This document shows positions 6,561 through 62,052 of a DNA stretch of 64,000 nt, piece after piece. The DNA lies in NCBI RefSeq assembly GCF_030684315.1, contig NC_081383.1, positions 42,288,979-42,352,978 on the forward strand. Direction: 5' to 3'. Position numbers and translations under genes: made by a program. Under the pieces are notes generated by a model that saw only the letters and a program-made list of their open reading frames with translations, was not told the origin of the DNA and made no database searches. The DNA comes from Stegostoma tigrinum. Taxonomy: Eukaryota. The number at the start of each line of letters is the position of its first letter. Positions within the stretch are counted from its first letter, which is position 1.

Positions 6561-9500
6561 TCATTCTGAATGAGAGAAAGATCAGCTTTGTCAATACAAA
6601 AAAGTAACCCTATTTCTGTATGTATGCAATGTTCCATGAAACAATCTGAAAAATATTTACAACAGGTTTGTGGACAAGTTTCCAGAGGTTCAAATAAATG
6701 CAAACTGCATTGTCAGTTAGACTAATAAAAGCAAAAGATGGAATGGGACATACAAAAATTGTAGTTTAGTTTAAAGAGGAGAGACACCTTAATAGCTTTG
6801 TCAGTGATAAACAGCATCACTAGGGGCCAGGGCAATTTCACAGCCATTGGGTTTAATCTTGAAAACTTACCACATTGTAGCAAGTTGATCAGGCTGTAAG
6901 AGAGAGTCAAAAGGAATACCAGGAGCCTCATACTGCCAATTTTCAACCTATAGCAAAAGGAGAGGTGTTAGTGGAGATGAACTTCCCCAACTAAATCGAT
7001 ACCTAGCAAGAGATGTGACCAAAGGCTTGGCTGTATACATTGGAGTGGATTAGATTAACAGATCATGCACAGTCAATGTTACAAATTTCATACAACCAAA
7101 TAATAATTCAACCATTTGCTGAACGTCAGCTTTTGTGCTCCCAAGGCACTGCTTGGCCTGCTGTGTTCATCAGCTCCACTCTTATAATCAGATTCTCCAT
7201 CATCTGCAGTTCTCATTATCTTTAATTGGAGAAAGTGTTTTCAGTGCTAAGTGAGAAGATGATAAAATATCACTTCTAAACATTAGAAACAAGTTATGCT
7301 ATCAAATTTTGAAAGTATGATGATGGAACATTATGGCAGTTAGATTAAATGATACTAATATTGACTGGATTGTAGGCCAGGATTCTTTTGTTCTGTTAGC
7401 TTTATCCTGGCTTTGATCCTGTGTGCTTCTTGACAGGAATTTCACTGGTTTACCTGGCTTTTTGCCAGGAGTGAGCAACAGTTGGTCTTGATCTGCAGCA
7501 CAAGATTGTTTACTTGCTGTTACTTTTCAGTGCATGCCAACTTAGTCACCAATGACAACAAAGTGCTGACTTTTAGGGCATAATTCCCCAGAGGTTTTTG
7601 CTGAGAAGTGCTGTCTGTTTTTTGTCTTCATTGCTTCCTGTTCATCTGTATTTTTCTGTTTGCAGGAGGAAAAAATCCAAGCCCTGAGACACCATGGACC
7701 AGTTACAGTTCCAGGACAAAATAAACGTGGCCTGGCTACTATTGTCCAACTTACTGCTGTCAGCTGGGCAGACCAACTGGTTAAATTTGGCTCCAGTGCC
7801 TTTAGACTGCAACACATCAAGGGAATGGGCCCTTCCTGAAGAGGCATTGTTGCACAGACCCATGGGGGTTTGGGAAAAGTGAGTAAAGACAGAGACAAAC
7901 CCTCCTCACCCAGGAGGTTAGTAAAAAATGGGACACCCCAAATGGCTACATAGCAAGTGGTATCCTCATCTAATGAGGATCAGTGCTGCTTTATAGGCTT
8001 GAGCCCAGTTTTGACAGAAGTCTTCTTCCTTGGCCTATACAATAGGATCTATGTACAGCAAAGCTTCAAGTCAATGCCACCTAAGATTGAGCATGTTACA
8101 TTGCTGGAGGACAAACTAATGGCTGGCGTTGTTTTTTCATACTGGAGTGACACTTTATCATGATCCAGCATTATCCTGTATCATACTTTGAACATCTGGG
8201 AGTGGGTGGAAACTTAACCTCCACTTACAAGCTCAGTCAGCAAGTAGCTCTTCATGATTAAGTGAGAATTTGAGATGAATCAACCTAGACTGGATTGGCC
8301 AGGGGTATTTTGTTGCAGCATTCTTTTCCAAATTGAGACAATTGGATCCCCAAAATCTCTAACTGTATCCAGATTAAGAAACTGAACTAGAACTATCACA
8401 ACAGCTGTAGAAAACTAGTGGGGTTTAAACCTGGGCCTTCTGGCCCTGAGGTAGGAAAATCCCATGAGGTTCTCATGACCTAGTACAACCTAGATCCAAA
8501 CAGCCCATTTATGTTTGCTTCTCAAATCACCAGAGTTCAGGCACCATTGCCATTCTTACCTAATGCTACCATCAGTGCACCTTTGTGGCTCTGCTGAGGT
8601 AAAAGTAGGTTTTTGAAGAGCTGCTCACAAGATACTATCTTCATTTTGGCCACTGTCAATTGGCAAGTTACTGTTTACATGGACCAGGCGTTTACAATCC
8701 TCCCACTAAAGCAGATCAATTATTCACGTTTGGGCATAAAGAGTTACACAGTGGCTCTTTGCAAAGTCCTTTTAAAAACCTAAAAGATCAAATCTCAGCC
8801 ACATTCTGAGTTAAGTGTGAGCCAGTGCCACCTCAACCTTGGCTGATTGAGGAAGGTGGTTTAATGTTCTTTTTGTAAAAGGGGTAAGATATTAACTGGG
8901 ACATGACCTTCCAGCTGCAGTCAGGCTAACTGAATGGTAGTGTGAGTAAAGAGAATGTTTGGGCATGTGGTGCCACTCAAGTGGGCTGCTTTGTCCTGGA
9001 TGGTGTCAAGCTTCTCAGAGCTGCAGCCATTCAGGGAACTAGAGTGTATTCCTCACACTGCTAATGCATTCCTTGTCAGTGGATGGTCAGGCTTTAGGGC
9101 AAAGTCAGGTAGAGAGTTATTCACCAAGATCTCTAGCCTGATCTGATCTTGTCTCAACTGTAGTTAGTCCAGTTTCTGGAAAATGGCAACATCTAGGATG
9201 CTGTGACTGGTGATTCCAATTTAATAGTGAATAGGAGGAGCAATAGTTAGAATTATTTGCTGGCAGCAGTGATTAACTGCCATTCGTGTTCATTTCCATT
9301 CATCACTCCCAGTGTGGATCATTCAGGTCTACCTGTGAGGCAACTGCTGATTGCTTCAGTATCTGAGACATCATGAATATACAATTACTCCCATTTCCAA
9401 TCTCAGAGGGATGGCTTTTTAGAGAAGTTGGTTGGATCTCAGACACTTTACTTCTGGACCAGGACTGGCAGGTCCAAGTCCTAACAGCTGACTGGATTGA

Positions 9501-22985: not shown

Positions 22986-23525
22986 ATGGCAACTGCCTCA
23001 TCTCAGTCATGGTTAGACGAGGAGCTGACCTGTTCTATTTGCCTGCAGGTCTACACCGACCCAGTGACCCTGGCGTGCCAGCACAGTTACTGCCGTTCTT
23101 GCATCGAGGAGTTTTCGCCCCAGAGCTGCCCGGAGTGCCGGGCCGAGCTGCCCGGCTTTAGGAGGCTGCACCTGGCCAAGGGCGCTGGAGATTACCTGGC
23201 GGTGGGCCCAGCGGCAGCGGCGGCTCCGAACAGCGCGCTGTGCAGCTATTGCAACCGCAGGCAGGCTGTGAAAACCTGCCTGAAGTGTGAAGCCTCCATG
23301 TGCCCCATTCACCTGAAACTGCACACGGCCAACAGGGTGTTCAAAACCCACCCCCTGGTGGATACATCGGCGGATCTGTCCGTCTGGAGATGTGCTGAAC
23401 ACGAGAGGCTCCTGGACATTTACTGTAAAGAGGACAAGGTGTGCATCTGCACCCTCTGCACCTTGATAGGCAAACACAAGGGGCACAACTGTGGCAGCAT
23501 CAGCGAAGGGGAGCAGGAGCTCAGG
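22986..23525 (+). CDS. TRIM E3 ligase (TRIM25/TRIM16/finTRIM-like), coding exon 1: RING, B-box1, B-box2
   Basis: Strong Kozak acaccATGG. C3HC4 RING (CSIC...CQH..CRSC...CPEC), B-box1 (CSYC...CLKCEASMC..HL..H....H), B-box2 (CAEH....IYCKEDKVCICTLC....HKGH). Donor AGG|gtaagt at 23526, phase 0; 540 nt. Confidence 0.96.
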
Positions 23526-24925: not shown

Positions 24926-25638
24926 ACGCAGAAAGAGGGCATTTGGCCAATGGGTCAACACTGACCCTCTGAAGAGCATTCCCCAGCCCCAGCCCTCTAC
25001 CCTATGTCCATAACACCTACACATCTCTGGATACTGTGGGCAATTTACCATAACCAATCCACATAACCTGCACATCCCTGGTCTGTGGGAGGAAGTCCAT
25101 GCAGACACGGGGAGAAGGTGCAAACTCCACACAGACAATTACCCAAGACTGGAATTGAACCTGGTGCTAATCACTGAGTTCTTTGGTCCATTGATTCCCC
25201 TTTCTTAACTCTCACACTTGGCATTTATTGATCCTTATGTCTCTAAGAAGTGAGACCAGCACATCGGAAAGCCTGTTGCTACCAAAGTTAAATTTCTGAT
25301 TTGTCATATTATAAAAAATTCTATTTGCTGATTTATTCTGAGAACTGGTTCATTAGCTCAAATTATTTTCAGCTGGGGTTGGTTACGATGCCTGTTATAG
25401 TCAAATAACCTGCTAGCATTGCAAAGGTTTGCACATGAAGGATGGCTGTTTGAGCCTGGTAATTGGAGTAAACCAGTAAATTGAAAAAGGAAAGAAGAAA
25501 CTTGCAGATCAAAACCATCAGATATGCCCCTTTCTTTAAAAGGGCTGATGTTTGCAGTTAGAGCAAAGTGATTTATTATTGACGTGGACTTACCACTAAA
25601 TAATGAAATGAACAATCAAAGCTAACCTGTCTCTTTAG

Positions 25639-25872
25639 AGCCTGATAACAGAAACAAAGAGAGAAGTGAAAGAAAAGTATGATGCATTGAGGAAACACAT
25701 TGAAAATGAAGAGCAAGATGTTTTCCATTGTCTGGATAAGGAACAGAGCCGCGTGACAGCAGCTATTGACAGCCACATTCAAAAGCTGGAAAAGGAAATC
25801 AAATTCTTTGAGATGTGTCTGGTTAACCTCACAGACCTTTCACAGAAGAGGGAGAAACATGCATTTATACAG
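25639..25872 (+). CDS. TRIM coding exon 3 (coiled coil, 234 nt)
   Basis: Branch-like gctaac, acceptor ctgtctctttag, donor CAG|gtaaca. Encodes SLITETKREVKEKYDALRKHIENEEQ...KHAFIQ; size typical for this exon. Confidence 0.93.
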
Positions 25873-28109
25873 GTAACACTACATTTATACAGGTAAACTG
25901 CTAATTTTTTCTTTTATGGGACATAGGTAACAGTCATTGTCCACCCGTAATTGCCCATGAATAAGGGCTACAGAGTTGTGAGAGAGGCTTCAGAATGGGA
26001 TGAAATACTTTACTGAGAGAGTGCCTGCAAGGCAGTGAAGAGCTGCGAAATAGAGCAATTTTAAATCATTCAACAAAGGAAGTTTTAGCTAAATGCACAA
26101 TCGAGAGAACTAAGGTGCTGAACTCCTTTAAAGTGAATGTGGAGGCTCTAGCTTAAGGCTGCAGGAGTTTAGCAACTAATCTATGGGGGAAAATGTTACG
26201 GATGCTATTGTAATAAACTCTGTCTCAATTGAGTAACTACATTAAACAGTTTTATTTCTTAAAGATTCACATCAAGGTGTTATCACATTTCAAAATATCT
26301 CACATATTGTGGAATTATTTGAGGGGCAGTGACTGTGTTATTGCAACAGTTTAGTTGTGACCTTAACAGTCTGTCTGTTTTCGTGTCATGTATAGAAGTG
26401 GGTTAGTTCTTTAAAAACATTGTTGATAACTTATAACTGATGTCTCGTGCTGATTTCAATATTGTGACATTTGAGAAATAAATGCTTCCCTTACGTGCTG
26501 TAGTTTTCAGTTTATTGGAGATGTATTGGTTAATGAGGATGTTGGTGAATCCTCCAATTCTCCTTCAGTTTGAGTTCCAAACCCCGACACATGCCAAAAC
26601 CCGTAAAGAAGGTATTGTTAGTACAAGACTGCAGCACCAAGTGAAGAAGTTAGTGAAAATGAGGAAGGACCCCAGTAAGACCAAAAGGTGGCCGCTGAAT
26701 TCAAAAAGTAGTCTTCAAAAGAAACTCAAGGCCTCAGACAGGCGTGGGATCTATTTTGACCCCCTGCTGTGCATGAATTAGGAGGCTGCGACTAGGGGTG
26801 ACACAGTAGCTCAATGGTTAGCATTGCTGTCTCACAGCACCAGGGATCTGGGTTCAGTCCCACCCTTGGGCAACTGTCTGTGCGGAGTTTGCACATTCTC
26901 GTTGTGGATGGGTCTTCCCACCGTCCAAAAATGTGCGGGTTAGGTGTATTGGCCACGCTAAATTGTTATGTATGTCCAGGGATATGCAGGCTAGATTAGC
27001 AATGGAAAATGGGTCCTATTGGACCGCTATGTGTAATACAGTGCCCATTATGAAGCAGGTAGGTCTCTGACAATCAGTGTGATTTACAACCACCAGCCCA
27101 TAACGATGCAGGTTAGTGATTGGTCCCCAAGGAAGCACAGTCCCAGTTTTAAAGCAATCATCAATGGTACCTTTAAAGGGAGGAAGACTCCTGGGAGATG
27201 AAAGATTGACTCACTCATCGAAATAAAGATGTGACAAACCTTACACTACAAGCAGAATAATGATTAAACATGCATTGACGGTGGTGCTTCAAGTATCATG
27301 GGATGTGTGTGCTTTTTTGTTTAATCTTGGAATATGGGCTTGGTCGGTAACAGCAGTGTTTAATACCTATCAGTAGTTATGACCATAAGATATGGAAGCA
27401 GAATTAGGCCATTCAGTCCAATGGGTCTGCTCCACCATTCAACCATGGCTGATATGTTTCTCAACCCTATCCTCCTGCCTTCCTCATAATCTTCGATCCC
27501 CTTGCTAATCAAGAACCTATCTATCTCAGTCTTACTCTTAAGAAGGTGGTAGTGAGTGGCCCATTAAACTGCTGCAGTCCATGTGATGTAGATACATCCT
27601 CAATACTGAGAAAGCCTGTTCACGAGTTTTAATCTAACAACAACAATATTGTTTCAAATCAGAATGGTGATTTGTAAGGGAATCTTCAGATGCTGATGAT
27701 ATCCCCATGGCAATATTTCACTACACTCCGGTTTATGCCTTCAAAATGGTTGAAAAGCTCTAGTGCCATTAGGAGGCAAGTTTCTCATCACAGAATTCCC
27801 AGTGTCCAGCCTGCTTTAGCAACCATAGTATTTATTTAGCTGGCCCAGTTATATTTCTAGTCACTGGTAAGGTCAGAGTGATGATGATGAATGTCAGTGG
27901 GAGATGGTTAGATGTTCTTGTTGTGATGGTCATTGCCTGGCTGTGTAGAGTGAATATAATTTGTCTATCATCTGGCTAAACCTTGAGGTCTTGCCACACT
28001 TGGGCACAGGCTGTTTCAGTATCTGAGAAGTTGAGAAACATCCCTACTTCTGCCTTTATGATGGGGAGAAGTTTATTTGGTGAATTACTGAAGTTGATTT
28101 GGCCTGTGG

Positions 28110-34495: not shown

Positions 34496-35914
34496 GCTGC
34501 TGTAGTTTTCTCAACACTGTAGAGATGTGCTGGCCAAGTGAACACCAATAGTTGGCCTCTGATCACAAACCTTAATTGATTTTTTAAATTATTTTAACTC
34601 AGCGACTGATCCAGCTTTTCAGAAAATGGGTTGAAGGCAGAATAGTGCCAATGAACCAGGATGTTAGCCAGCAAAATTATGTGCCCGCCTGTCTCAGTGT
34701 CCCCCTGCCACTGGCTGGCAAGCATCTGCCAATGGTAATAATACAGGCCAGGAGAACAGCCAAGCTCTGGAGTAGGGATGATCCTTGACAATAAAGAGTC
34801 ATCTCCACTCGTTTAACAATTTCTAGCTTTAGGCTTTTGAAGTTCCTTACTAACTAAACAGACAAATACTAATTAGATCAATTAGGATCAAGGACAATCC
34901 TTTATGGTTTAAAAGCTTGAAGATTTGGGAAGCTGGAATTATTAATTATGGGGATTTGACTACACATATATTACATGAAGGTGTTTGTGCAAATGTGGTA
35001 GCATCCCTACCTCTGAGCCAGGAGGCTCAGGTTCAAGTCCCACTGCTCCAGAAGTGTGTCATAACATCTGTGAACAATGTGATTAAAAGTACCCATATTT
35101 GCATGACCTCCTTTATTATGTTTCCTTTGTTGCAATTTCACACACGATATTGTCAAAAACACTCACAATTCTTTATTTTTAGCCACTAATGCAAACCAAG
35201 ACAATCTGACATGTTTGGCAAGATGTGATACCCAATAATTTGATACATTTGGACAACAGCAATGACCAGAGCTTGGATTCTGGACTGCTCCATCACTTTC
35301 CTACAAGCTCACAATTCTAGTTTGAGTTTCCTGTGTATTTATTATATCTTCCTTTTTTCAGAACTTCATTCTTTGCAAAGAAATGTCAGTGGGATGTAAG
35401 ACCTGAAAGCTTTGAATAATTATTGGCAAATTGTATGTATTAGCCATTGCTAACCTGGCTGGATTGTGTCAGATTTCAATCATCCAGAACTGGGTTGTAC
35501 AGAAATTGACAAAAATTGATTTCCTGGTGTCTTCATCAGCCCTAAATCTAAGTCAATACGAAACCTGCTCAGAATTTCTGTAAATACATGAGCGGGAGCT
35601 TCAAACTCAATTGTATTAACAAGAAGTGTCCTTTATTGTTTTCAGTTGCCTATCTATCGTAACTTCATGAGGCCTGGATATTTACTGTTCCATCCCATTG
35701 CCTTCCAAAAGATGCTGCTACTAACTGTCCTAAAGGAGATGCTGACCCTGCAACTTTCTTTCCTACTCTCCCATTCACCACTTTTAATCTCTGTCTCCAT
35801 TGTTGCAAGCTGTTAACTGTTTGTATCTAACACAAGTTATCCCCAGAAACTCTGAATCATTTGGCGACAAAGTCTAACCTCTTCTCGCCCATCACCCTTA
35901 AAACCAAGCAAATC

Positions 35915-36680: not shown

Positions 36681-37564
36681 CTATTGAAATCGATGCTGTC
36701 TGTATGGTTTCTGTTTCATTTGTACAGTCTGCTGTTATAGAAAGTACTTATTAAACAGTATTCATGTTAAGTTTGAGCTTCATTAAACACGCTACATTTC
36801 TTATCATTGAAACCCATTGCATCATATATCCCCATGAATGTGCACAGGTAAAGCAAGTACATATTGGGACTTCTAGATCTGAAAACCCCAGGGCCAACTG
36901 GTTTTCAGACAAAGAATGCTTTTGGGATGTTGGATACACTTACTGTTATAGGTCTTTCTGGGTCCCTTTGGATAAATACTTTGCATTTAGGTCTGGTTGG
37001 GTCCTTTTGGGTCACGTTCAATAGACCTTTGGTTTTTAGCTCTTTTTGGTTTTCGGTCTTGACCTGTAAGCTTATGTCACTGGCAAAGTACACATACGGG
37101 AGAACTTCTGAAATAATCTTTGAAGGCAGTAAGTGGCCAACACACACAGGCTAATGCAAATTATTCAGGTTTATTTAGAGCCAAAAGGCTGTACAGAAAA
37201 ATATTTTACATGGAAGAAGTTATGTTGGTATGATGCTCAAAAATTAGTAGAATGTTGAAAAAAAGCCAAGTTTCGAAACAGAAATTTGTGTTTCCATATT
37301 CAATTATACATCAAAATGTAATCTAAATTAAAGTTGTTCAGGTGATTTCCAGTTTTTTTTCTGTACTCTTTCATGGGTTATGGGCATCAACAGCATTGTT
37401 GCCCGTCCCTAATTGTGTTTGAATAGAGTGGTTTGTTAGAGCATTTTTAAGAGGGTAGTTGTGAGTCAACAACATCACTGTGGATGTGGAGGCACATAAA
37501 TTCCAAGTGGTAGACATTCTTCATGAACCAGATGGGTGTTCACAACAATCAACTCCCAAGAGAT

Positions 37565-37905
37565 TAAGAACAAAAACAAAATTGCTGGAAAAGCTCTGCA
37601 GATCTGACAGCATCTGTGGAGGAGAAAATGGAGTTAATGTTCCTCGTCCGGTAACCCTTCCTCAGAACTGAGCTCTGAGGAATGGTCACCGGACCCGAAA
37701 CGTTAACTCTGTTTTCTCCTCCACAGATGCTGTCAGACACAATGGTAACCAGGTAAGTGGCAATAACGTCCAAAACGTATTAATCCTTATATTATGCAGA
37801 CAATATCTGGTGTTCATGAAAATTGATTTCCAGGTGTCTTCATCAGCCTTACATTCCAAGCAACTTTGCTTTTGTTCCTGATTTACAGCATCTGCAGTTC
37901 TTTTG
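37565..37905. repeat. Fold-back Penelope pseudo-LTR pair carrying a 124-bp captured host segment
   Basis: tctgacagcatctgtggaggagaaaa ... ttttctcctccacagatgctgtcaga inverted arms. 37737-37860 copies 38689-38813. Confidence 0.85.
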
Positions 37906-38681
37906 TTTTTTTTTCCCCCAAGAGATTATCTTTTAATTCCAGATTCATTCATTTGAAGTTAAATTTGATCACAGTTACAGTGGGATCCAAACCTCTGTCC
38001 TCAGAATTTTAACCTCAGCCTCCGGATCACTAGAGACAGACAATACCACTAGACCACAATCTTGTTTTGGATAAGGAGATAGATATAGTCCTTAGGGCTA
38101 AAGGGATCAAAGAGTATGGGGAGATAGCAGGGATAGGGTACACGTTGGATGATCAAACATGATCCTATTGAATGGTGGAGCAAGCTTGTGGGACTGAATG
38201 GCCTACTCCTGCTTCTCTTTTCCCCATCTTGGTTTGGTAATTTGGCTATTTCTGAATCTGTCATTTCCATGCTTGAACAATTTGCTGTCTAAACATCACG
38301 ATTTGGCATAAAAAGTCCTCAAACATGGTAATATTTGATTTCTGTGTGTTGTCAAATCTGTCATTATATCATGCAATTTATATCTTTGCATCTGCTGTTG
38401 TAAAAGGCCAGTTTGGCAAGTTCAGGACTGAACTCCCTGAGGGAGGAATTAGCATGTCACACCAGAGCTGTCATTTATATTTGAAATAGAGTAAATGTTT
38501 ATGTTTTATTGTAGGTAGACAAGCAAACGAGGGCAGTGCAATTCTCATTTGCATCTCGCGTTCTATGATAACCTATTCGACATGACAATCTAATTGCCTG
38601 GACTTTCTTGATGTATTTGCAAGGATTACAGTCCCAAACTTATACCATGCAAATATACTAATGCAATTTTGTCTTTTGCAG

Positions 38682-38704
38682 GGATTCAACACAATGGTAA
38701 CCAG
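38682..38704 (+). CDS. TRIM coding exon 4 (23-nt micro-exon)
   Basis: tactaat branch-like motif, acceptor ttttgtcttttgcag, GGATTCAACACAATGGTAACCAG, donor gtaagt. A 23-nt phase 0-2 exon is characteristic of B30.2 TRIMs and joins exon 3 to exon 5 in frame (GFNTMVTR). Confidence 0.88.
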
Positions 38705-40879
38705 GTAAGTGGCAATAACATCCAAAAACATATTAATCCTTATATTATGCAGACAATATCTGGTGTTCATGAAAATTGATTTCCAGGTGTCTTCATCAGC
38801 CTTACATTCCAAGTCAACGTAAAACCTGCTCATAATTTCTATAAATCCATGAACCAGAGCTTCAAACCTGAATGTATTAAAGCCTTACTTTGACTTGCCT
38901 TTGGCACTTACAAGGTCCCAATTTCATACAATAAAGTCATTATTTAGTGTGATTTCTTGTTTTTATGTCGTTGCTGTTGAATACACAATACAGCCATGAT
39001 TCAAGCTCTCCTTTTTTATATTTATTCATGGGATGAGGGTGTTGATGGTCATCATTAGACTCTTAATTCCAGATTGTTGAAAACTTCAAATTTAACCATA
39101 TGCCATGGTGGTATTCAAACCTAGGTTTTTGTCTTTATTTATTTACAGGATGAGGGCATTGCTGGCTTGGCAGCATTTATTGTCCAGAAGGCAGTTCAGA
39201 GTCAACTGCATTGCTGTGGGTCTGGAGTCAGATATAGGCCAGACCAAGTAAAGATAGAAACATACAAGATTGGGGCAGGAGGAGGCCATTTGGCCCTTTG
39301 AGCCTGCTCTGCCATTCTTCACGATCATGGCTGATCATCTGACTCAATTGCAGCATGGCAGCTTCCTTCCTGAATAATATTAGTCAACCATAGGGGTTTT
39401 TCCATCAATAGATAGTGGATTCATCATTAGATTCCAGATATGTGTTGAATTTAAAGTCCACCGTCTGCTGTGGCAGGATTTGAACCCGGATCCCCAGAAC
39501 ATTATCCAGGTGTACAGATTAATGTCTCAGCGACAATACCTCCAGGGTATCACTTCCCCTGTTTGAGAGTCTATTTTCTAAACCTTTATTATTGATATAC
39601 TTCAGCTTTATCATTGCAGTCCTGTAGTCATGTCTGGATTTAGAGTATTTAACCTATGAGTCTGTCCATGCAGTCCTTATTGAATCAGCTGCTAAGCTGT
39701 CTCCTAAATTGACAGTATGGTAGGAATGCAACATACAATCATTACAGATCAGAGTTGCACTGCCTACTGGTAAATAGTAAAGCAATAATATTCTGGGCGT
39801 GACTGTGCTCACACCTGAAGAAGGTATCAAACACTTTGGACTTAAGAATATGGAGCCTAAAGGTGTTTGTGATCTGCTATAAAATTTGCAAGATGTGAGG
39901 CAGCTGAGACAGATTTCTTGAATTTCTAAGCATTTGTTTGAAATGATACAACAGACCTATAAATCAATGTTTAAAATATTAGCACTGATTCTGTGGTTTA
40001 AAATATTCCATATTTAATGATTAATTCACATATACTGTTGAGATTTATTTCTTTTCACTTGTGTTGGATCAAAGTAGATCTTGGGCTGATTCCTAATGAC
40101 TTAGATCAGCCAGTATTTGAAGAAATAAAGCTAGCAGACTTTAGGTTAGCATGTGTGTCATAACAGTCCACAGCAACAGTGCTGCAGGTATATGTAACAT
40201 GTGATGCGTTATGTAACAATCCTTTAAGTTTCATCTCTCAGTATGAGTGTGTGATATGCAGAAGACTTCCAACAGTGTGTTGTTACATAAAACATTCACA
40301 GGGTCTGCAGTTACCTAGTAACAGAAACAAAGTTAGCACTTTGACAAAGTGATGCTTTCAGATTAGATCATGTGATGTGAACTGTCATTTTTACCACCTA
40401 CAGCTACTAAAGTGAATAATTGTTTAAAATCTACCTCCGCAGAGCTCGCGTATTTTTAAAGAAAGGAAGTAAATTGGTTTTCGTGCAGAAGTCATAATTA
40501 ACAGATCTTCGGTCTCCCACTCCCACTCCCATTCTCGAAACCACACCCACCCAACACACGCACATCTCAAATTGATCCACCCACACATCCTGCATTGCTT
40601 AGGGCATAAGTGGGAATGGAAAACCTAGAGAAGATCATTCAGCCACTCAAACCTGTTCCATCATTGTTAGATTATGGCTCATCAGTGCATTATTGTGTGC
40701 ATCTTCCATACTAATTGTTCACATCCACACACACACCACTGATCATCCAGGGGATGGACAAAGATTCACTTCTTTAAACAAGAAGGGCTTGACATTCTGA
40801 CACTATTATTCAATACTCTTCCAACACTTAACACATTCCTGGCACTGCTTCTTTCACACTTGCACTCGCTTTTGCTTCT

Positions 40880-41991: not shown

Positions 41992-42140
41992 GATAAAGAA
42001 TGCATCGGAGCAGTTAACGTCCTCTCAGCCTGGCCCTTGTCTGGATAAAATAAAACTGGATAGAATAAAAAACCATACACAGAAAAACTTCGAGCTGGTT
42101 TCCCAGGTGAAGAGGGACAGAGATCGTTTGATTTCTCTCT
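41992..42140 (+). CDS. TRIM coding exon 5 (linker, 149 nt)
   Basis: Acceptor ttatgtttcag, donor T|gtaagt. Open in the required phase 2-1: (R)IKNASEQLTSSQPGPCLDKIKLDRIKNHTQKNFELVSQVKRDRDRLISL(Y). Confidence 0.88.
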
Positions 42141-42504: not shown

Positions 42505-42845
42505 GTTTATTCATTCATGGGATGAGGGTGTCGCTAGCTAGGCCAGCATTTATCGCCATCCCTAAATGGGAATTAAGAGTCAATCACTGCAGGTTTGGAG
42601 TCACATGTAGGCGAGAACAAGTAAGGACGGCAGTTTCCTTATGTAAAAGACATTAGAGAACCAGATGGGTTTTTCCTGACAATCAACAATGGATTCATGG
42701 TCGACATTAGACTCCTAATTCTAGATTTTTATTGAATTCAAATTCCACCATCTGCCATGGTGGGATTTGAATCCAGGCCCCAGAATACTACCTGGGTCTC
42801 TGGATTAATAGATCATTGATAATACTCTACACTGTGCCTCTCCCA
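42505..42845 (-). mobile_element. SINE-like repeat sharing its 3' tail with the second LINE family
   Basis: Recurrent ggagtcacatgtaggc...gtaagga.ggcag...gaaccagatggg core. Copies near 16095-16260(+), 30985-31315(-), 37370-37550(-), 39010-39560(-), 62850-63095(-). Confidence 0.7.
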
Positions 42846-53222: not shown

Positions 53223-54255
53223 CATCTTTAAATGCGGCACTATCTGCCACAGTGAGATTTGAGTACATACCTCAGAACATTAGTCTGGATTACTAATACT
53301 GTGATATTACCACAATGCCAGCACTTCAATAAGGTGATTTTAAAATGGGTATTAAATCAAAAAGCAGCAGAGCTTATTTCTAGAGGGATAGAATAGAAAT
53401 TAAAGAATTTATAATACAGCTATATAGAATAGTAGTTCAACCTATTGAAGTATTATATGTGATTCTAGTCTCTCTGAAACTGCCTTTCTCACTGCACTGT
53501 ACATGTCTGTACACTGTATAAACTACAGTGGCTCACCACTCTGCTTAGGGATGGGTAGTAAATGCTGGTTCAGCCAAAACGTTCACATCCTGTCAATGAA
53601 CTTTTTTCTAAAAGGGGGAATAACAAGCACTGGAGAAACTGTAAAAAAAATGATAAAGATTATATCAGAAATGCGAGCTAATACCTACCAGGTAATGATT
53701 GATGGTCTCGATTTCTTTTCCTTTGAAAATTATAAGATGTGAAATGATCATATAGAGGTCTTTTAAAATTGTGAAAGATTTTAATCGTGTGGTAATAGAG
53801 AATGTTTCCTCACGTTGGGAAGAACAGAACTAGAGGCCATCAACAGAAGGTAGTAACCAAGAAATCCAATAAAGAACTTGGAAGAATACACTTTAGATAA
53901 CAAGCTATGAGGAAACAGAACTTGTAATCTCAAAGATAATTACACAGTTGCACTGAAGGAGTGGCTTAATGAGCCTATGATAGTGATGGATTGAAGTGAG
54001 GAAGAGTGAGAAAGTGGAGCATATCAGCTTGTGCTAGTTGGCCTGAATGGCCTATTTCTGTGCCATATATCTAACCTAATCCTTACTTTGTCTCAGACCT
54101 CACATTTATTCAGATTAAGTAGTGCAATGGAAATTAGATAAATACAATCAAATTATCATCGCATTGCAGGACTAGTTGACTCCAGCTTGGTGCAGATACA
54201 TTCACAAATGCTCAACTAAGGGCAGGATCACTGAAATATTTCTTTATGTTCATAG

Positions 54256-54800
54256 ATGGACAAAAACTGAGCCTGGACCTCAACACAGCCCATCCCCAGT
54301 TCATCCTGTCTGATGGAAACAAGACTCTGACTCTCTCACCGAAGAGGCAGTCTCTACCCAAGAATACCGAGAGGTTTGACTGCTGCCAGCAGCTTTTATG
54401 TGCCGAGGGAGTGAAAGCCGGCCGCTCCTACTGGGAGGTGGAGGTGCTGGGAGACAGCGGTGTGTGGAAAATTGGCCTCTGTTACAGGAGCATCAGCCGT
54501 AAGGGCAAAGGAACAGAGTGTTTACTGGGGAGGAACTGCAATTCGTGGTGTCTGTACTCATTGGTGGGCACTGTTTTAGCCCTTCATGATGACAATGATA
54601 CGAAGCTAACAGTGGGAAACATTTCCAGGGTGGGAGTGTATGTAGACTTTGAGGCTGGGACCATCTTGTTTTACAGTGTCTCTGACAGGAAGCTCACCCT
54701 GGTGCACACTTTCCAAGAGCAAAACTTCACCGAGGCTCTCTACCCTGCCCTGCAGATTGGTGACTTCACCACATCGCTGTCTCTATGTACGCTGAAATAA
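54256..54800 (+). CDS. TRIM coding exon 6: PRY/SPRY (B30.2) domain and stop
   Basis: Acceptor tttctttatgttcatag, phase 1 (T|AT = Tyr). Motifs LDLNTAH, ERFD, GRSYWEVEV, LGRNCNSWCL, RVGVYVDFEAG, LYPA; TAA at 54798-54800. Confidence 0.96.
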
Positions 54801-60339: not shown

Positions 60340-62052
60340 GGCAGTTCTCCACCGACACCCTCATCCGCCTAGTCGAACTCGTCCTCGCCCTCAACAACTT
60401 CTCTTTCGATTCCTCCCACTTCCTATAGACTAAGGGTGTGGCCACGGGCACCCGCATGGGCCCCAGCTATGCCTGCCTCTTTGTAGCTTACGTCCTTCTT
60501 CCGCACCTACACAGGCCCCAAACCCCACCTCTTCCTCCGTTACATTGATGACTGTATCGGCGCGGCCTCTTGCTCCCCAGAGGAGCTCGAACAGTTTATC
60601 CACTTCACCAACACCTTCCACCCCAACCTTCAGCTCACCTGGGCCATCTCCAGCACATCCCTCACCTTCCTGGACCCCTCAGTCTCCATCTCAAGCAACC
60701 AGCTTGTAACTGATGTCCATTTCAAGTCCACCGACTCCCACAGCTGCCTAGAATACAACTCCTCCCACCCACCCTCCTGCAAAAATTCCATCCCCTATTC
60801 CCAGTTCCTCCGCCACCGCCGCATCTGCTCCCACGATGAGGCATTCCACTCCCGCACATCCCAGATGTCCAAGTTCTTCAAGGACCGCAACTTTCCCCCC
60901 ACAGTAATCGAGAATGCCCTTGACCGCGTCTCTTGCATTTCCCGCAACACATGCCTCACACCCCGCCCCTGCCACAACCGCCCAAAGAGGATCCCCCTCG
61001 TTCTCACGCACCACCCCACCAACCTCCGGATACAACGCATCATCCTCCGACAGTTCTGCCATCTACAATCCGACCCCACCACCCAAGACATTTTTCCATC
61101 CCCACCCTTGTCTGTTTTCCAGAGAGACCACTCGCTCCATGACTCCCTTGTTCGCTCCACACTGCCCTCCAACCCCACCACACCCGGCACCTTCCCCTGC
61201 AACCGCAGGAAATGCTACGCTTGCCCCCACACCACCTCCCTCACCCCTATCCCAGGCCTCAAGATGACTTTCCACATTAAGCAGAGGTTCACCTGCACAT
61301 CTGCCAATGTGGTATACTGTATCCATTGTACCCGGTGTGGCTACCTCTACATTGGGGAAACCAAGTGGAGGCTTGGGGACCGCTTTGCAGAACACCTCCG
61401 CTCGGTTCGCAACAAACAACTGCACCTCCCAGTCACAAACCATTTCCACACCCCCTCCCATTCTTTAGATGACATGTCCATCATGAGCCTCCTGCAGTGC
61501 CACAATGATGCCACCCGAAGGTTGCAGGAACAGCAACTCCTATTCAGCTTTGGAACCCTGCAGCCCAATGGTATCAATGTGGACTTCACCAGCTTCAAAA
61601 TCTCCCCTGCCCCCACCACATCCCAAAACCAGCCCAGCTCTTCCCCTTCACCCACTGCATCCCAAAACCAGTCCAACCTGTCTCTGCCTCCCTAACCGGT
61701 TCTTCCTCTCACCCATCCCTTCCTCCCACCCCAAGCCGCACCTCCATCTCCTACCTATTAACCTCATCCCACCTCCTTGACCTGTCCGTCTTCCCTGGAC
61801 TGACCTATCCCCTCCCTACCTCCCCACCTGTACTCTCCTCTCCACCTATCTTCTTTTCTCTCCGTCTTTGGTCCGCCTCCCCCTCTCTCCCTATTTATTC
61901 CAGAACCCTCACCCCATCCCCCTCTCTGATGAAGGGTCTAGGCCCGAAACGTCAGCTTTTGTGCTCCTGAGATGCTGCTGGGCCTGCTGTGTTCAGCCAG
62001 CGTCACATTTTATTATCTTGGATTCTCCAGCATCTGCAGTTCCCATTATCAC
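60340..62052 (+). mobile_element. Penelope-like element, 5'-truncated (RT, GIY-YIG endonuclease, pseudo-LTR), in FAM32A intron 1
   Basis: RT motifs LNNFSF...GVATGTRMGPSYA and RYIDD; GIY-YIG NVVYCIHC..C..LYIGET..RL..RF.EH (ORF 60865-61695). In-frame stop near 60426, so defective. Confidence 0.9.
61926..61953 (+). ncRNA. Minimal hammerhead ribozyme motif (Penelope-type)
   Basis: CTGATGA, stem II (gggt ctag gccc), GAAA, CGTC. Conserved core with palindromic ACGT stem III and GUC triplet; stem I very short. Confidence 0.6.

Follow-up and report, generated by a model that had tools for sequence, protein, structure and literature searches.

Templated insertions, exonized repeats, duplicated mutually exclusive exons and PLEs are the closest known systems to the locus described here, and the comparisons below refer to what the excerpts of the cited papers contain. 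Class 2 TSIPs (PMC5110952) resemble it in the copying of an intact donor site, a micro-deletion, microhomology, and the lack of a target duplication and of poly(A). Their templates are distant, however, whereas the template here lies 950 nt away in the same gene, and the excerpt deals with polymorphism and an RNA intermediate, whereas the present copy is known from two samples' contigs and sequence only. In exonized intronic retroelements such as Alu exons (PMC2639721, PMC11263572), as in this locus, the repeat gives the pyrimidine tract and the AG, and stable structure goes with non-use: according to the excerpt of PMC2639721, exonizing Alus have weaker structure than silent ones. In Alu exons the donor arises by a point mutation, whereas here the host's own donor was transplanted as a copy; moreover, the sequence predicted to mask the acceptor here is the inverted arm of the element itself, at a distance of 7 nt.

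Tandem duplicated mutually exclusive exons (PMC5740500, PMC9741552) share with this locus a homologous neighbour exon, the same phase, and a frame shift on joint inclusion; in 60% of the human clusters of this kind, according to the excerpt of PMC5740500, the lengths are no multiple of three. In contrast to those systems, 16 of 23 nt were copied here, the native acceptor was left out, and the exon is young, not conserved, and a candidate only. EN+ PLEs, with inverted pseudo-LTRs and minimal type I hammerheads (excerpts of PMC8557442 and PMC7761336), are alike in the place of the arm, which a longer copy has 3' of an RT/GIY-YIG frame, and in the truncated inverted pair, the tail and a hammerhead-like motif. 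The present copy differs from them: it is a remnant without coding sequence, its hammerhead stem is broken, and it carries foreign DNA. Taken as a mechanism, the locus resembles repeat exonization with a transplanted donor, but its acceptor is predicted to be inaccessible. Searches of the open-access literature turned up neither a description of this locus nor a case of a fold-back PLE capturing a donor. We consider it probable that a later copy sits in an older Penelope fold-back, likely as a repair patch, and that the resulting 26-nt pseudo-exon is silent, with the hairpin lying over its acceptor.

The host gene and the copied segment

The window (i.e., the whole stretch of 64,000 nt that was analysed) contains the six exons of a TRIM25-like gene of Stegostoma tigrinum, which were set by orthologue alignment and tblastn. 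These are listed below together with the copy, its template and the candidate exon.

22986..23525, + strand: exon 1 (RING, two B-boxes); the joined model is identical to P0048
23928..24023, + strand: exon 2 (96 nt)
25639..25872, + strand: exon 3 (234 nt, coiled coil); the RNA-like run X4 covers it with sharp edges
37727..37752, + strand: candidate pseudo-exon, 26 nt (10 nt repeat-derived and 16 nt from exon 4), donor CAG/GTAAGT; none of its joints is among the joints listed
37737..37860, + strand: probable templated copy of the exon-4 3' end, its donor and 108 nt of intron 4, with 15 nt of the arm lost; runs X1 and X2 both show a contig fork where it ends
38682..38704, + strand: native micro-exon 4 (23 nt, GFNTMVTR)
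38689..38813, + strand: template of the copy
41992..42140, + strand: exon 5 (149 nt)
54256..54800, + strand: exon 6 (PRY/SPRY)

The joined six-exon model yields 528 aa, the same residue for residue as P0048, whose source name is E3 ubiquitin/ISG15 ligase TRIM25-like (Stegostoma tigrinum), and Pfam finds RING, B-box, PRY and SPRY in the protein. The length of exon 4 and its G-F are kept in all ten aligned orthologues, from shark to chimaera (alignment A3, taken without the mis-modelled P0002 and P0005 and also without P0003 and P0006). The public orthologue models P0002, P0003, P0005 and P0047 look mis-annotated near micro-exon 4, exon 5 or the C-terminus. An extra exon at 53615-53691 was rejected, as orthologues splice exon 5 straight to exon 6. 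Exon 4 encodes residues 291-298, which the initial annotation had placed at the hinge between coiled coil and linker; the AlphaFold model (mean pLDDT 80.5) puts them instead in the middle of a predicted helix, 285-303.

The same annotation had described a near-identical copy of 38689-38813 at 37737-37860, and coordinates and sequence hold to the base. The two segments differ by 2 substitutions in 124 aligned nt and by a single 1-nt indel within a run of A (blastn E 2e-56). The copy contains 16 nt of exon 4, then the donor, then intron; it is sense-oriented, unspliced and in direct orientation, and lies about 1 kb upstream of its template, in intron 3. A genome search with exon 4 and its flanks gave 3 matches among 3 candidates, all inside the window.

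Contigs from the DNA runs of the species speak to the reality of the duplication. In both of them (X1 and X2), a contig ends at 38813 and the next begins at 38784, and a 30-nt overlap of this kind marks a fork of the assembly graph where the copy ends, a sign that covers the right junction only and comes from two samples of one study, possibly the assembly's own (contigs do not give zygosity). Loose contig ends at 37859 show normal arm sequence. The duplicated segment is thus very likely present in the reads. That it is an assembly artefact absent from the genome could be argued from the possible common origin of runs and assembly and from the fact that none of the listed contigs spans both junctions; given the fork in two of two runs, and a copy that differs from its source at 3 places, we regard this as extremely unlikely. 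At position 38830, the window has T and all three runs of the species have G, an allele or assembly difference.

The candidate exon is bordered by cag/ATG...CAG/gtaagt and reads MLSDTMVT(R). Frame arithmetic bears out the earlier description of a stop-free exon of 26 nt and phase 0-2, with either exon alone keeping the frame and both together shifting it. In place of exon 4, it leaves an open frame of 529 aa; together with exon 4, it brings a stop after residue 304, with the last junction 153 nt further downstream. Under the 50-nt rule, a stop at that distance makes the message an NMD target. Same phase, homology and freedom from stops, as in mutually exclusive duplicated exons, are all found here. 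Steric or splice-type exclusion is not, since the spacer between candidate exon and exon 4 is 929 nt and both have ordinary GT-AG ends, so that exclusion of double inclusion could be enforced by NMD only, and double inclusion followed by decay would be the default if the exon were used. An isoform with the exons swapped would also need exon 4 to be skipped, and is predicted to add one residue in mid-helix.

The fold-back element and the origin of the insert

The copy lies in the right arm of a fold-back repeat with the following parts.

37555..37566, + strand: left copy of a 12-nt target-site duplication
37567..37666, - strand: left (inverted) arm of a fold-back terminal repeat, probably Penelope-type; 37603-37641 is predicted to pair with the acceptor region
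37671..37738, + strand: right arm, 5' part, with a degenerate minimal hammerhead motif, a branch-point-like TTAAC, a pyrimidine tract and the AG at 37725-37726
37671-37708, + strand: the degenerate minimal hammerhead motif in the right arm, with the stem II closing pair broken at 37683
37859..37914, + strand: right arm, 3' remainder and tail; loose ends at 37859
37917..37928, + strand: right copy of the 12-nt target-site duplication

The arms (37603-37669 and 37671-37737) are 87% complementary, and belong to a high-copy family (4469 candidates, of which 40 were scored). Examination of 28 arm loci, one of them without tail and two of them duplicates, left 25 distinct family copies, picked as best matches, and the insert at this site is absent from all 25. 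In an intact copy, L012, 15 nt stand where the window has 120 foreign nt, in agreement with the initial annotation's view that the copy had replaced a short piece of the right arm.

A longer copy at 32.8-33.6 kb links the arm to an RT/GIY-YIG frame. In it, the arm copy 32923-32818 sits 62 nt 3' of a degenerate frame that corresponds to residues 177-379 of the ORF at 60487-61692 (E 1e-27), a link seen in one of the 24 arm matches within 464 kb. The ORF itself matches GIY-YIG PF01541 with an E of 0.0025, below the cut-off, and its relatives carry PF00078, PF26215 or PF01541; the name "Penelope" is on none of the listed relatives, and a PDB search with the RT/GIY frame gave no matches. As expected of a Penelope-like terminus, a repeat thus lies 3' of an RT ORF with C-terminal GIY-YIG, in the 32923-32818 copy, and adjoins a 5'-truncated inverted copy with an unpaired tail, the layout given in the excerpt of PMC8557442. 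A minimal hammerhead-like core occurs at the arm site in 14 of 24 copies, with a 5-bp stem II in 9 of the 14; the window copy has the core and a broken stem II. Rfam gave no hammerhead match in the arm. Identity as a miRNA hairpin was rejected, the Rfam scores being far below gathering and reflecting the stem only. Together with the inverted truncated partner and the 12-nt target duplication, the RT/GIY-YIG link supports reading the arm as a Penelope-type terminal repeat matching descriptions of PLE ends, as had been proposed.

Elsewhere in the window, 60487-61970 holds a 402-aa open RT/GIY-YIG frame of a second Penelope-type family, with an intact-looking minimal hammerhead motif near 61920. 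The fold-back element is itself nested in an older repeat, 37403-38060, which resembles 42640-42810 (by eye; partial blast matches).

The relative age of element and copy can be read from their divergence. Arm against arm, the inner stem has 8 mismatches in 64 (1 CpG-type), whereas copy and source differ at 2 of 124 positions, both CpG-type (CG in the copy, CA in the source); the Fisher test gives p=0.0004 for non-CpG sites and 0.003 for all. Given that the copy-source pair is far more alike than the two arms, the copy appears younger than the element, i.e., capture would have followed insertion of the element, unless later conversion homogenised copy and source.

The features of the insert match those of a class 2 templated insertion: an intact source, a 15-nt micro-deletion, 2-nt overlaps, and no TSD or poly(A) at the insert. 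The exact microhomology of 2 nt at each junction is not significant (reached by 0.13 and 0.15 of random sites). When gaps of 1 nt are permitted, 11 of 3000 random sites equal the imperfect homology of the right junction, and that of the left is unremarkable (0.12 of random sites). The break may have been induced by the hairpin, as the initial annotation had it; the scar lies 67-82 bp from the hairpin tip, in one arm only. These junction features and the later date of the capture favour templated repair, as the initial annotation had suggested, and the insert is likely a class-2-like repair patch. The alternative is capture during the element's own insertion, with the Penelope reverse transcriptase switching onto TRIM pre-mRNA, or later capture from nascent RNA. 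This origin would suit the sense orientation of the copy and its lack of splicing, as well as the ability of PLEs to retrotranspose host sequences with introns in trans (excerpt of PMC8557442). Yet copy and source are far more alike than the arms, so that capture at insertion needs a later gene conversion, and we hold this origin to be improbable.

On the repair reading, a truncated element inserted as an inverted pair, with its 12-nt target duplication, and the copy, judging from divergence, arrived after it. A break or stalled fork in the right arm may then have cost 15 nt, and the gap may have been filled from a template 950 nt downstream and rejoined on about 10 nt of imperfect homology.

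Local copying is not exceptional here: 464 kb held nine low-copy local duplicates of at least 40 nt, two of them more than 95% identical; several others look like repeat fragments. Scaled to 3.2 Gb, a rough inference gives thousands of young copies, some tens of them taking a donor by chance. The sole other young copy in the 464 kb (82 nt, 98.8%; L061:7174-7255 and 8677-8758) lies in introns at both sites and has stops in each of the three frames, so the idea that local copies prefer splice donors is unsupported. Between those two 82-nt copies, at about L061 8151-8275, lies an exon that resembles one of an adaptor mu-1 subunit.

The exon-3 donor of the TRIM25-like gene is also duplicated (25862-25896), with a 15-nt exact copy after a 5-nt spacer and a second GT 20 nt downstream, which is in frame only with exon 4 skipped (527 aa). 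Outside minisatellites, the 464 kb contain only 3 isolated spaced duplicates, of which this is one. Two young donor copies in one gene are suggestive. The contig of organism B over 25537-26155 is 15 nt shorter, with a difference at 25896, hence this donor copy is likely absent there; none of the listed pieces of organism B lies over the hairpin or exon 4. An older, locus-specific direct copy (83%), 35512-35619 against 38772-38880, gave 2 matches genome-wide; it overlaps the part of intron 4 that also served as template, and the region is covered in organism B.

Predicted masking of the acceptor and use of the candidate exon

The initial annotation had credited the repeat with a strong acceptor. 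This stands for the linear sequence, with 16 of 18 pyrimidines, but not for the predicted fold, in which the acceptor is fully paired with the left arm. The predicted pre-mRNA helix (37699-37737 with 37603-37641) has 39 unbroken pairs, 3 of them G-U, and spans the branch-point motif, the pyrimidine tract, the AG and the first 11 exon bases. Its fold has a z of -13.6, and none of 200 shuffles was as good. Opening positions -25..+3 of the candidate acceptor is predicted to cost 52.4 kcal/mol, against 7.4-10.3 for all five real acceptors, and 13.3 kcal/mol when the left arm is left out; the predicted unpaired probability over -20..+10 is 0.00. Masking is common to the family, as 22 of the 23 copies having the AG cost more than 25 kcal/mol. 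The copied donor, in contrast, is perfect and accessible (3.7 kcal/mol). The stem is a folding prediction, and helicases or heavy A-to-I editing could open it. When editing was mimicked by unpairing 2-6 of the 12 left-strand A's, the cost was still 30-45 kcal/mol; with all 12 facing A's unpaired, it falls to 15.6 kcal/mol.

Since the gene's sense strand reads the left arm first, this arm would be transcribed before the acceptor and zip with all of the acceptor region, from the branch point over pyrimidine tract and AG to the 11th exon base, and U2AF and U2 are predicted to be unable to bind there. The allele would then be near neutral, with native exon 4 used, and any leak would mainly be double inclusion targeted for decay.

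Run X4 has no RNA label on record and is called RNA-like from its coverage; exon 3 is covered, and depth is zero at those positions of the two flanking introns that are listed; contig matching extended over 17 kb at 90% likeness, with many repeat matches. One X4 contig of 2685 nt has no break at exon 3, where its piece ends at 25869. If joints are placed leftmost, such an end is what an acceptor with CAG in common (exon 4, or exon 5) would give, and it speaks against the pseudo-exon, which shares ACAG and would give 25868. Joints into or out of the pseudo-exon are not among the 15 joints listed (there are 3433 further), and contigs drop minor forms, so that dominant forms are what can be read. 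The protein cluster has one protein for Stegostoma tigrinum, the native 528 aa (4/4 members), and MLSDT is in none of the proteins retrieved. This evidence on RNA is thin, and points in the same direction as silence. The initial interpretation is hence partly supported: the duplication, the frame, the Penelope origin and the templated repair hold, while the birth of a working exon is unsupported, given the predicted pairing of the acceptor and an X4 contig and single annotated protein that fit the native exon.

Other outcomes must be weighed against a silent exon. The stem might open at times, through a helicase, editing or fast splicing, so that the pseudo-exon, or a longer exon, joins exon 4 and leads to NMD or to a TRIM without PRY/SPRY. 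The perfect, accessible donor would allow this, as would the 929-nt gap, in which nothing steric opposes double inclusion, and the stop after residue 304; moreover, an upstream AG at 37353 is open (4.8 kcal/mol, 11 of 18 pyrimidines) and could define a 400-nt exon with a stop. Against such leakage stand the masking of 52 kcal/mol, an X4 in which no such form is visible, and the cost of more than 15 kcal/mol for four of the five candidate acceptors within 500 nt, and we consider it rather unlikely. A related outcome, in which the fold-back stays shut until dsRNA editing or unwinding (e.g., by interferon-induced ADAR on the 12 A's facing the pyrimidine tract) and the TRIM25-like message is then degraded, or lacks PRY/SPRY, in an immune response, would be very unlikely.

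A functional alternative micro-exon, with MLSDTMVTR for GFNTMVTR, seems highly improbable. The common phase and the stop-free 529 aa are compatible with it, M at position 1 and L at position 2 are each present in paralogues, and NMD can clear double inclusion (compare the excerpt of PMC5740500). It needs, however, an unmasked acceptor and the skipping of an exon that is conserved in 10 of 10 aligned orthologues, it would put one extra residue into the middle of the predicted helix, and no such protein is on record.

What the locus may mean

A probably silent pseudo-exon makes this locus a snapshot of the raw material of exon birth and of why it can be tolerated, in that one and the same repeat provides the acceptor and is predicted to conceal it. 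If gating of the kind described above were true, the fold-back ends of Penelope elements would form a large stock of acceptors that mask themselves and that captured donors can make into conditional exons. Should unmasking by editing or a helicase be shown, an immune E3 ligase would have a switch specific to this lineage, and there would be a path, open to testing, by which fold-back repeats become regulated poison exons.
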